A stretch of 1,179 bases of DNA from Escherichia coli. GTDB lineage: Bacteria; Pseudomonadota; Gammaproteobacteria; Enterobacterales; Enterobacteriaceae. Below are positions 41 to 1,179 of this stretch, piece after piece. Positions within the stretch are counted from its first letter, which is position 1, and each line of letters starts with the position of its first letter. Where the stretch lies: NCBI RefSeq assembly GCF_003334385.1, contig NZ_QOWN01000123.1. One strand, given 5' to 3'. A model generated the notes under the pieces. The model searched no databases. It was not told the DNA's origin and saw only the letters and a program-made list of their open reading frames with translations. The position numbers and the translations under genes are program-made.

Positions 41-45
41 AGTCA

Positions 46-49
46 CTCC
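46..49 (-). promoter_or_regulatory. Shine-Dalgarno (GGAG) for the downstream minus-strand start codon at 40-38
   Basis: Minus-strand reading is ...CACGGAGTGACTATG; GGAG with a 5-nt spacer to ATG is standard ribosome-binding geometry. Confidence 0.4.
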
Positions 50-109
50 GTGATGAATATCATGTTATTGTTAATGCCAGCGAATGTGGCGTTGAATATC
101 CGTTGCGCC

Positions 110-140
110 GGTCCGGGTCCCGATCATGATGACCGGGACC
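110..140. other. GC-rich imperfect inverted repeat (potential stem-loop) in the 3' intergenic region of the autotransporter gene; not a canonical intrinsic terminator
   Basis: Seen in sequence: 116-122 GGTCCCG pairs perfectly with 134-140 CGGGACC (7 bp, 11-nt loop). An alternative register, 110-119 against 131-140, gives a 10-bp stem with one mismatch. The loop contains the short palindrome ATCATGAT. No T/U-run follows on either strand. Confidence 0.3.
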
Positions 141-160
141 ACAGAGAGGCGATGGTTCTG

Positions 161-1179
161 TCAGAAGGTCACATTCAGCGTGGCCTGACCGTTATAGCCT
201 TCAGCGCTGCTGCCGCTGACGCTGTGGACATAACCTGCCTGAACGCCCAGGGTGATATTTTCCCGGACACGGGCTTCCAGTCCGGCCTGCAGGTCCAGTG
301 ACGTACCATTCTGTGACGGTGAGAACGTCATGTTACTGCCGGCTGCGGCTGTACCCATGCTCATGTCCCCCCGGGAGCTGAAGGTGCGGATAACAGAAGG
401 CTGTACCCACCAGTTCACCGGCAGTTCACGCACACTGTGTTTGGCACTGCCGCGCAGGGTGTCACGGGATGAGGTGCCTTTACCAAAGTTCATATCGTGG
501 TGGCTGCCCAGACGGAAGCCGGCACGCACATGTTGTGCACTGCCATGCCCGAACTTCACATAACTGGCGTTATCCTGGCCGTCATCCAGGGAGAGTCCCT
601 GCCAGGTGTACTGCAGTTGCGGCTCCAGCATCAGATTGTCAGTGATACTGAAGGGCAGACCGGTTTCCAGCGAACCCAGCCAGCCCCAGCCCCGGACGCG
701 GAAGTCGTTATTGTCCGATGAGGCTTTCATGCTGTGGCGGGTTCCCTGGGCCACAATGTCAGCCCACAGGCCGGAGGCGTTGTGTATCAGATTCAGGTAT
801 CCGCCCAGGCTGCCGGCATCATCCCGGACCGTGCCGGCACGGGAGCCGTCATCATCCTTAACATCAACGGAAGAATGGCCAGCAGCACCATATACCCCCG
901 CGGTCACAGACATACCGGCAACCTCTGTTCTGAGCAGGTCACCCTCCAGACGGACGAAGCCATAGCTGCCGCTGCTTTCCGGCGTGGCTCCACGGGCAAT
1001 ACCGCCGTTGTTATCGTGACCGAGATGACCGCCCTGAATGCTGAGACGGACGCTGTTATTTTCACCGCTTACACCGGTCTGATGGCTGCGGGAGCCTGCC
1101 AGAATCCGGTCATAGTCCATTGCCTGTGTCAGCATGGAGGCATACAGGGGGACTTCTGCACGATAAGCATTTTCACTGC
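161..1179 (-). CDS. flu: Type Va autotransporter, C-terminal translocator (beta-barrel) domain plus preceding linker; antigen 43 (Ag43)-like. Partial: 5' end and passenger domain lie beyond the window's right edge. Stop codon at 161-163.
   Basis: Seen in sequence: a 324-aa minus-strand ORF in the track, and my manual translation of 1136-1178 continues in frame with no stop (...SENAYRAEVPLYASMLTQAMDYDR...), so the Met at 1135-1133 is internal. The C-terminus ends in an aromatic residue (NVTF), the usual outer-membrane beta-signal. Repeated amphipathic segments with alternating hydrophobic/aromatic residues (YGFVRLEGDLL, FRVRGWGWLGSL, LQYTWQGLSL, WWVQPSVIRTF, ITLGVQAGYVHSV) and Gly/Ser/Asp-rich connectors fit a 12-strand barrel. 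Established knowledge/recollection: the sequence closely matches what I remember of the E. coli Ag43 beta-domain; not verified by search. Confidence 0.85.
   Translation of the reverse strand, partial: SENAYRAEVPLYASMLTQAMDYDRILAGSRSHQTGVSGENNSVRLSIQGGHLGHDNNGGIARGATPESSGSYGFVRLEGDLLRTEVAGMSVTAGVYGAAGHSSVDVKDDDGSRAGTVRDDAGSLGGYLNLIHNASGLWADIVAQGTRHSMKASSDNNDFRVRGWGWLGSLETGLPFSITDNLMLEPQLQYTWQGLSLDDGQDNASYVKFGHGSAQHVRAGFRLGSHHDMNFGKGTSSRDTLRGSAKHSVRELPVNWWVQPSVIRTFSSRGDMSMGTAAAGSNMTFSPSQNGTSLDLQAGLEARVRENITLGVQAGYVHSVSGSSAEGYNGQATLNVTF

Follow-up and report, generated by a model that had tools for sequence, protein, structure and literature searches.

Because antigen 43 (Ag43) is among the best-studied autotransporters of E. 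coli, the locus described here has little discovery value, and its practical use lies in annotation. The translocator of Ag43 has been defined as a 330-amino-acid unit composed of an alpha-helical linker and a beta-barrel (Ageorges et al. 2023, PMC10058404). Ag43 translocators are monophyletic across all Ag43 classes and group with the translocator of AIDA-I in cluster G13, and modules are shuffled among Ag43 proteins (PMC10058404). The Ag43 barrel has no solved structure; roles for its L4 and L5 loops and cleavage at D552/P553 have been described (bioRxiv 10.1101/2025.04.08.647479). Solved type Va translocators are those of AIDA-I (PDB entry 4MEE), EspP (3SLJ), EstA (3KVN), Hbp (3AEH), BrkA (3QQ2) and NalP (1UYN).

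The DNA analysed is a stretch of 1179 nt from E. coli, which in its full length is referred to as the window. It is almost certainly the 3' end of an agn43 (flu) allele, with the Ag43 translocator, the spacer behind it and the start of a yeeR-like gene. When the window segment is compared with Flu of E. coli K-12, the length is the same without any gap, the stop is in the same position and the yeeR start is identical; the 22 amino-acid replacements in the segment are an allelic difference only. The Ag43/Cah alleles of 948 amino acids include that of SK1144 (WP_061089395.1) and Cah of EHEC, and in SK1144 the 1179 nt of the window are base-for-base identical. With the solved type Va translocators the segment shares its predicted fold, a 12-stranded barrel after a pore-filling helix, but the sequence identity to them is only 12-17%, and in the hmmsearch alignment AIDA-I and BrkA are without the long insertion that Ag43 carries between strands 8 and 9.

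Reading frame and sequence identity

The agn43 frame is read on the minus strand and is open at the window's right edge, with 338 codons at 164-1177 and a TGA stop at 161-163 (TCA on the plus strand). The in-frame stretch, 161-1177, thus has 339 codons, of which the last is the stop; the codon before this stretch is split by the window edge and contributes only its final two bases, 1178-1179. The preliminary description had placed the coding region at 161-1179, and the frame is found there, uninterrupted for 338 codons. The 339 amino acids that it gave for the translation include the stop, the protein segment being of 338 amino acids, and the limits 161-1179 are out of frame when taken literally. 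Over the whole window, the minus-strand frame of agn43 contains 3 stops, versus 19 and 23 in the remaining two. Given these counts, the NCBIfam and Pfam matches detailed below and a DNA sequence that is 100% identical to genes annotated as agn43, the open reading frame is real and not due to chance.

When 5,426 complete E. coli genomes were searched by megablast with all of the window as query, matches were obtained in 4145 of them, about three-quarters, often in several copies (median of 2 places per genome, maximum of 7). Identity is at least 99% in 199 matching records, and among the best 30 matches listed it is 100% across all 1179 nt, so the exact sequence is present in 30 or more complete chromosomes of E. 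coli. The annotation beneath the matches reads 'agn43: autotransporter adhesin Ag43' or 'Ag43/Cah family autotransporter adhesin', together with a downstream hypothetical protein. The translation aligns gapless to residues 702-1039 of K-12 Flu (b2000, YP_026164.1, which we take to be UniProt entry P39180), with 316 of the 338 residues identical (93%); over the same segment, the nucleotide identity to K-12 flu is 93.9%.

The family membership of the C-terminal module can be read directly from the profile searches. The sole NCBIfam match is the equivalog NF033177 (auto_Ag43), with an E-value of 4.7e-242 and 806 bits over profile positions 611-948 of 948. The whole-protein cut-off of this profile is 1200 bits, which the fragment does not reach only because the window lacks two-thirds of the protein; the full protein of GE3, which contains the identical segment, scores 1902 bits and is above the cut-off. 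The Pfam autotransporter beta-domain (PF03797) matches residues 63-314 over model positions 16-254 of 255, with an E-value of 2.8e-21 and 76.9 bits. The preliminary description had recognised an antigen 43-like type Va autotransporter, and the NF033177 and PF03797 matches and the DNA identity to agn43 bear this out. Its expectations of near-identity to K-12 Ag43 over the C-terminal third and of a PF03797 match in the last 260-280 residues agree with the alignment to Flu and with a match lying within the last 276 or so. It had also called the family well characterised and its content nothing new, and indeed the allele is an ordinary one, and the gene segment is well characterised, already known and carried by most E. 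coli.

An alternative is that the copy of agn43 in the source genome is decayed or truncated, so that the segment is the remnant of a pseudogene and yields no functional adhesin. E. coli genomes hold up to seven matching places, some of them have truncated autotransporter pseudogene copies beside a related spacer, among which one or more loci are annotated as incomplete and adjoin an incomplete yeeR-like gene, and the 5' two-thirds of the gene are beyond the window, which by itself cannot prove the source gene intact. The frame, however, is uninterrupted for all its 338 codons and finishes with the native stop after the carboxy-terminal residues NVTF, a named product is annotated in each of the 30 records listed at 100% identity, and both genes that were examined are intact, encoding 1039 amino acids in GE3 and 948 amino acids in SK1144. 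We regard a decayed copy as quite improbable.

Predicted structure of the translocator

For structure prediction, an alignment of ten sequences was used, which contains the window protein, that of K-12 and homologues encoded on plasmids of Citrobacter, Pantoea, Ralstonia, Tardiphaga, Rhizobium, Pandoraea and Caballeronia, with identities as low as 25%. The fold is thus a predicted one: the AlphaFold2 model based on this alignment has a mean pLDDT of 82.8 and a pTM of 0.81 and consists of an alpha-helix, formed by residues 8-28 (1094-1156, minus strand), followed by twelve beta-strands. In the linker region, residues 11-30, the two 10-residue blocks have mean pLDDT values of 91 and 88. The predicted 12-stranded barrel is made up of residues 42-338 (164-1054, minus strand) and is indicated by the Pfam match, the model and the profile and fold matches alike. 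The 338 residues of the window almost exactly match the described unit of linker and barrel, and 'barrel and linker', as the segment had been named in the preliminary description, is an apt name for the predicted helix and strands, given their matches to translocator folds and the 330-residue unit.

When the model was compared to the PDB with Foldseek, ranks 1-18 were all autotransporter translocators (EspP before cleavage, EstA, AIDA-I, Hbp, BrkA, AaaA and NalP), with TM-scores normalised to the target (TMt) of up to 0.77. For AIDA-I, EspP, EstA, Hbp, BrkA and NalP, the E-values are from 4e-14 to 4e-9 and the TMt 0.68-0.77, apart from EstA (3KVN), whose TMt is only 0.40 because that chain is twice as long. 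By analogy with the structures of EspP (3slj) and AIDA-I (4mee), which are among the fold matches, the linker helix would be located inside the barrel pore. The segment ends in GQATLNVTF, with phenylalanine as its final, aromatic residue. A carboxy-terminal aromatic residue acts as the beta-signal for recognition by BAM. At the level of sequence, a single-sequence phmmer search against the PDB gave no match at E <= 0.01, AIDA-I included, which is consistent with the absence of a solved Ag43 barrel (bioRxiv 10.1101/2025.04.08.647479). The ten-sequence profile was required to reach the PDB beta-domains, and with it those of BrkA, AIDA-I, EspP and Hbp were matched significantly.

Another alternative is that the segment is the translocator of a different self-associating autotransporter, such as AIDA-I, TibA or another protein with AIDA repeats. 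The AIDA-I and Ag43 translocators fall in one phylogenetic cluster (G13, PMC10058404), the ten-sequence profile matches the AIDA-I transport unit 4mee with an E-value of 1.6e-19, and a Citrobacter 'AIDA repeat-containing protein' is 65.7% identical over the segment. Yet the profile for AIDA-I (NF033176, auto_AIDA-I) does not match the window protein, for which auto_Ag43 is the only NCBIfam hit; AIDA-I is one of the PDB chains that the single sequence fails to find at the above threshold, and the identity in the structural alignment with 4mee is 17%, versus 93-100% to Ag43 alleles. Even with the full GE3 protein, the best stretch for NF033176 is in the passenger (residues 208-376) and reaches 235 bits where the cut-off demands 1200. 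DNA identity to agn43, the NCBIfam result and the identity to K-12 Flu effectively refute this origin, to which we assign a negligible probability.

The L4, T4 and L5 region

The allelic differences are unevenly distributed. Relative to K-12, the segment has 22 amino-acid replacements and 32 synonymous codon differences, and 14 of the 22 replacements are located within residues 198-290 (binomial P about 4e-4). This region (308-586, minus strand) comprises the loops L4 (residues 198-211) and L5 (267-290) and, between them, the disordered turn T4 (about 226-253) and is delimited by the Ag43a loop numbering, the pLDDT values and the substitution counts; the limits of L4 and L5 were carried over from the Ag43a numbering by residue count (bioRxiv 10.1101/2025.04.08.647479). 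Seven of the 22 replacements are concentrated in the disordered residues 226-253 (window positions 419-502; P about 0.0015), and in the AlphaFold2 model residues 228-250 have pLDDT values below 50, indicative of disorder.

The T4 segment corresponds roughly to an insertion of about 20-28 residues between the predicted strands 8 and 9. In the ten-sequence alignment this insertion is common to Ag43, Cah and the Citrobacter homologue and is absent in Pantoea and the more distant relatives. From the order of the strands and the topology of the barrel, the T4 insertion would be on the periplasmic side. The replacements in T4 are most simply read as those of a disordered loop whose constraint is relaxed. 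That T4 is a functional periplasmic element, for instance one that contacts BAM or a chaperone or serves as a protease-sensitive handle, is conceivable, and we consider it unlikely.

Proposed mechanism of export

The steps of Ag43 export outlined here are drawn from established knowledge of type Va systems together with PMC10058404 and bioRxiv 10.1101/2025.04.08.647479, and for the window segment we infer every functional step. Export by Sec would come first, after which BAM would fold the carboxy-terminal 300 or so residues and insert them into the outer membrane as a 12-stranded barrel. The passenger would then be threaded outwards, from its carboxy-terminal end to its amino-terminal end, while the alpha-helical linker (window residues about 8-28) would remain in the pore. 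L4 and L5, both long hairpins, are expected to template the folding of the autochaperone and of the passenger beta-helix. The passenger, alpha43, would be cut autocatalytically from the translocator part, beta43, at D551/P552, a site that the window does not reach because it is located further upstream, and would stay non-covalently bound to it. On the cell surface, alpha43 may pair head-to-tail with Ag43 on neighbouring cells, leading to autoaggregation and biofilm formation.

Passenger architectures upstream of the window

The AC1 autochaperone, the D551/P552 processing site, the extended signal peptide and the self-associating, L-shaped beta-helical passenger, which defines the function of Ag43, are all located upstream of the window. 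GE3 has all of them: over its full length its protein shares 95% identity with K-12 Flu, and it has kept the DPTNVT site. The same 1179 nt are found behind the 1039-residue protein of GE3 and behind the 948-residue protein of SK1144. When these two proteins are compared, residues 1-277 are identical, as are the last 338 or so, while the central part of the passenger and the autochaperone (about 278-610) is divergent, SK1144 being 91 amino acids shorter. The difference between GE3 and SK1144 fits the module shuffling described for Ag43 proteins (PMC10058404). Because identical DNA is shared by at least two architectures, the translocator module alone does not tell the passenger class of an Ag43 protein, and hence not its aggregation phenotype. 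The genes of GE3 (8161-11280 of locus L001) and SK1144 (3661-6507 of locus L015) form a clear mosaic, whose 3' breakpoint closely precedes the start of the window.

The preliminary description had rightly placed the passenger and the promoter controlled by Dam and OxyR outside the window; in GE3 they are 2.1-2.5 kb past its right edge. About 150-240 nt upstream of the GE3 agn43 start codon (at 11280), three GATC sites are present in a block resembling the Dam/OxyR region of K-12. Between the first two of these sites there is an insertion of 12 nt, and the spacing differs from that in K-12. The leader downstream of the GATC block is largely divergent, but the terminator-like hairpin that immediately precedes the start codon has been kept.

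Spacer and downstream gene

Downstream of agn43, annotation and alignment with K-12 delimit an intergenic spacer of 120 nt (41-160, minus strand), which differs in 2 positions from the agn43-yeeR spacer of K-12. Twenty nt past the agn43 stop, in the direction of the minus-strand transcript, the spacer contains a 25-nt palindrome of 12+12 nt at 116-140, with the arms GGTCCCGATCAT and ATGACCGGGACC. The RNA fold of the spacer has a z-score of -3.1 and the palindrome is predicted to form a stable hairpin. The palindrome is not followed by a T-run, and the consensus scan, which covered both strands, gave no intrinsic terminator; nor did any RNA family match when all of the window was compared with Rfam at E <= 1. 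In four other alleles with differing flanks the palindrome is perfect and invariant, so that it provides no covariation support for the hairpin, and in the allele of the window a single C has changed to T, which keeps the pair as G-U. Possible roles of the palindrome are those of a hairpin for processing or stabilisation, of a weak attenuator and of a site for a protein. That it is a processing or attenuation site setting the read-through from agn43 into yeeR is a speculative proposal, which we find doubtful.

Apart from this palindrome, the repeat search found short repeats at chance level only. The spacer was also considered as a dispersed repeat, and it was found in 3275 places, versus 7364 for the coding segment, adjoining agn43 or yeeR-like genes in the loci examined. 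Since it is rarer than the coding segment and in those loci always next to such genes, nothing points to a dispersed mobile element. On the plus strand, the consensus scan gave one promoter-like site, at 34-63, which is within chance (0.5 ± 0.9 expected). Open reading frames antisense to agn43, such as those at 606-965 (119 amino acids) and 252-563 (103 amino acids), do exist mechanically on the plus strand, but no listed genome has a plus-strand feature annotated under the match and long antisense frames are expected by chance in coding DNA with 59% G+C, so that they are probably chance frames and the likelihood of a real overlapping gene is minimal.

The yeeR-like gene, again placed by annotation and alignment with K-12, starts on the minus strand within bases 1-40, which cover 13 codons plus one base and are identical to the start of K-12 yeeR. 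Its ATG is at 38-40, with a GGAG Shine-Dalgarno sequence 7 nt upstream, and the first 13 codons encode MLQIVGALILLIA. The preliminary description had attributed the whole coding content of the window to the autotransporter; this is nearly so, these 13 codons being the exception. In GE3 and SK1144 the product is a 'hypothetical protein' of 838 amino acids (5524-8040 of locus L001), for which no NCBIfam family was matched; the inner membrane protein YeeR of K-12 has 510 amino acids. K-12 appears to carry a shortened version of the yeeR part of the island.

In GE3, the order of genes is GTPase, agn43 (1039 amino acids), the 838-residue protein, IrmA, DUF905, DUF932, antirestriction protein, JAB/YeeS, YeeT, YeeU and CbtA. 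The CP4-44 region of K-12, flu-yeeR-yeeS-yeeT-cbeA-cbtA, has the same order in a shorter form, and the GE3 neighbourhood is a CP4-44-type island. For annotation, the window therefore marks an island of this type with a phase-variable aggregation and biofilm factor. In K-12, yeeR runs straight into yeeS.
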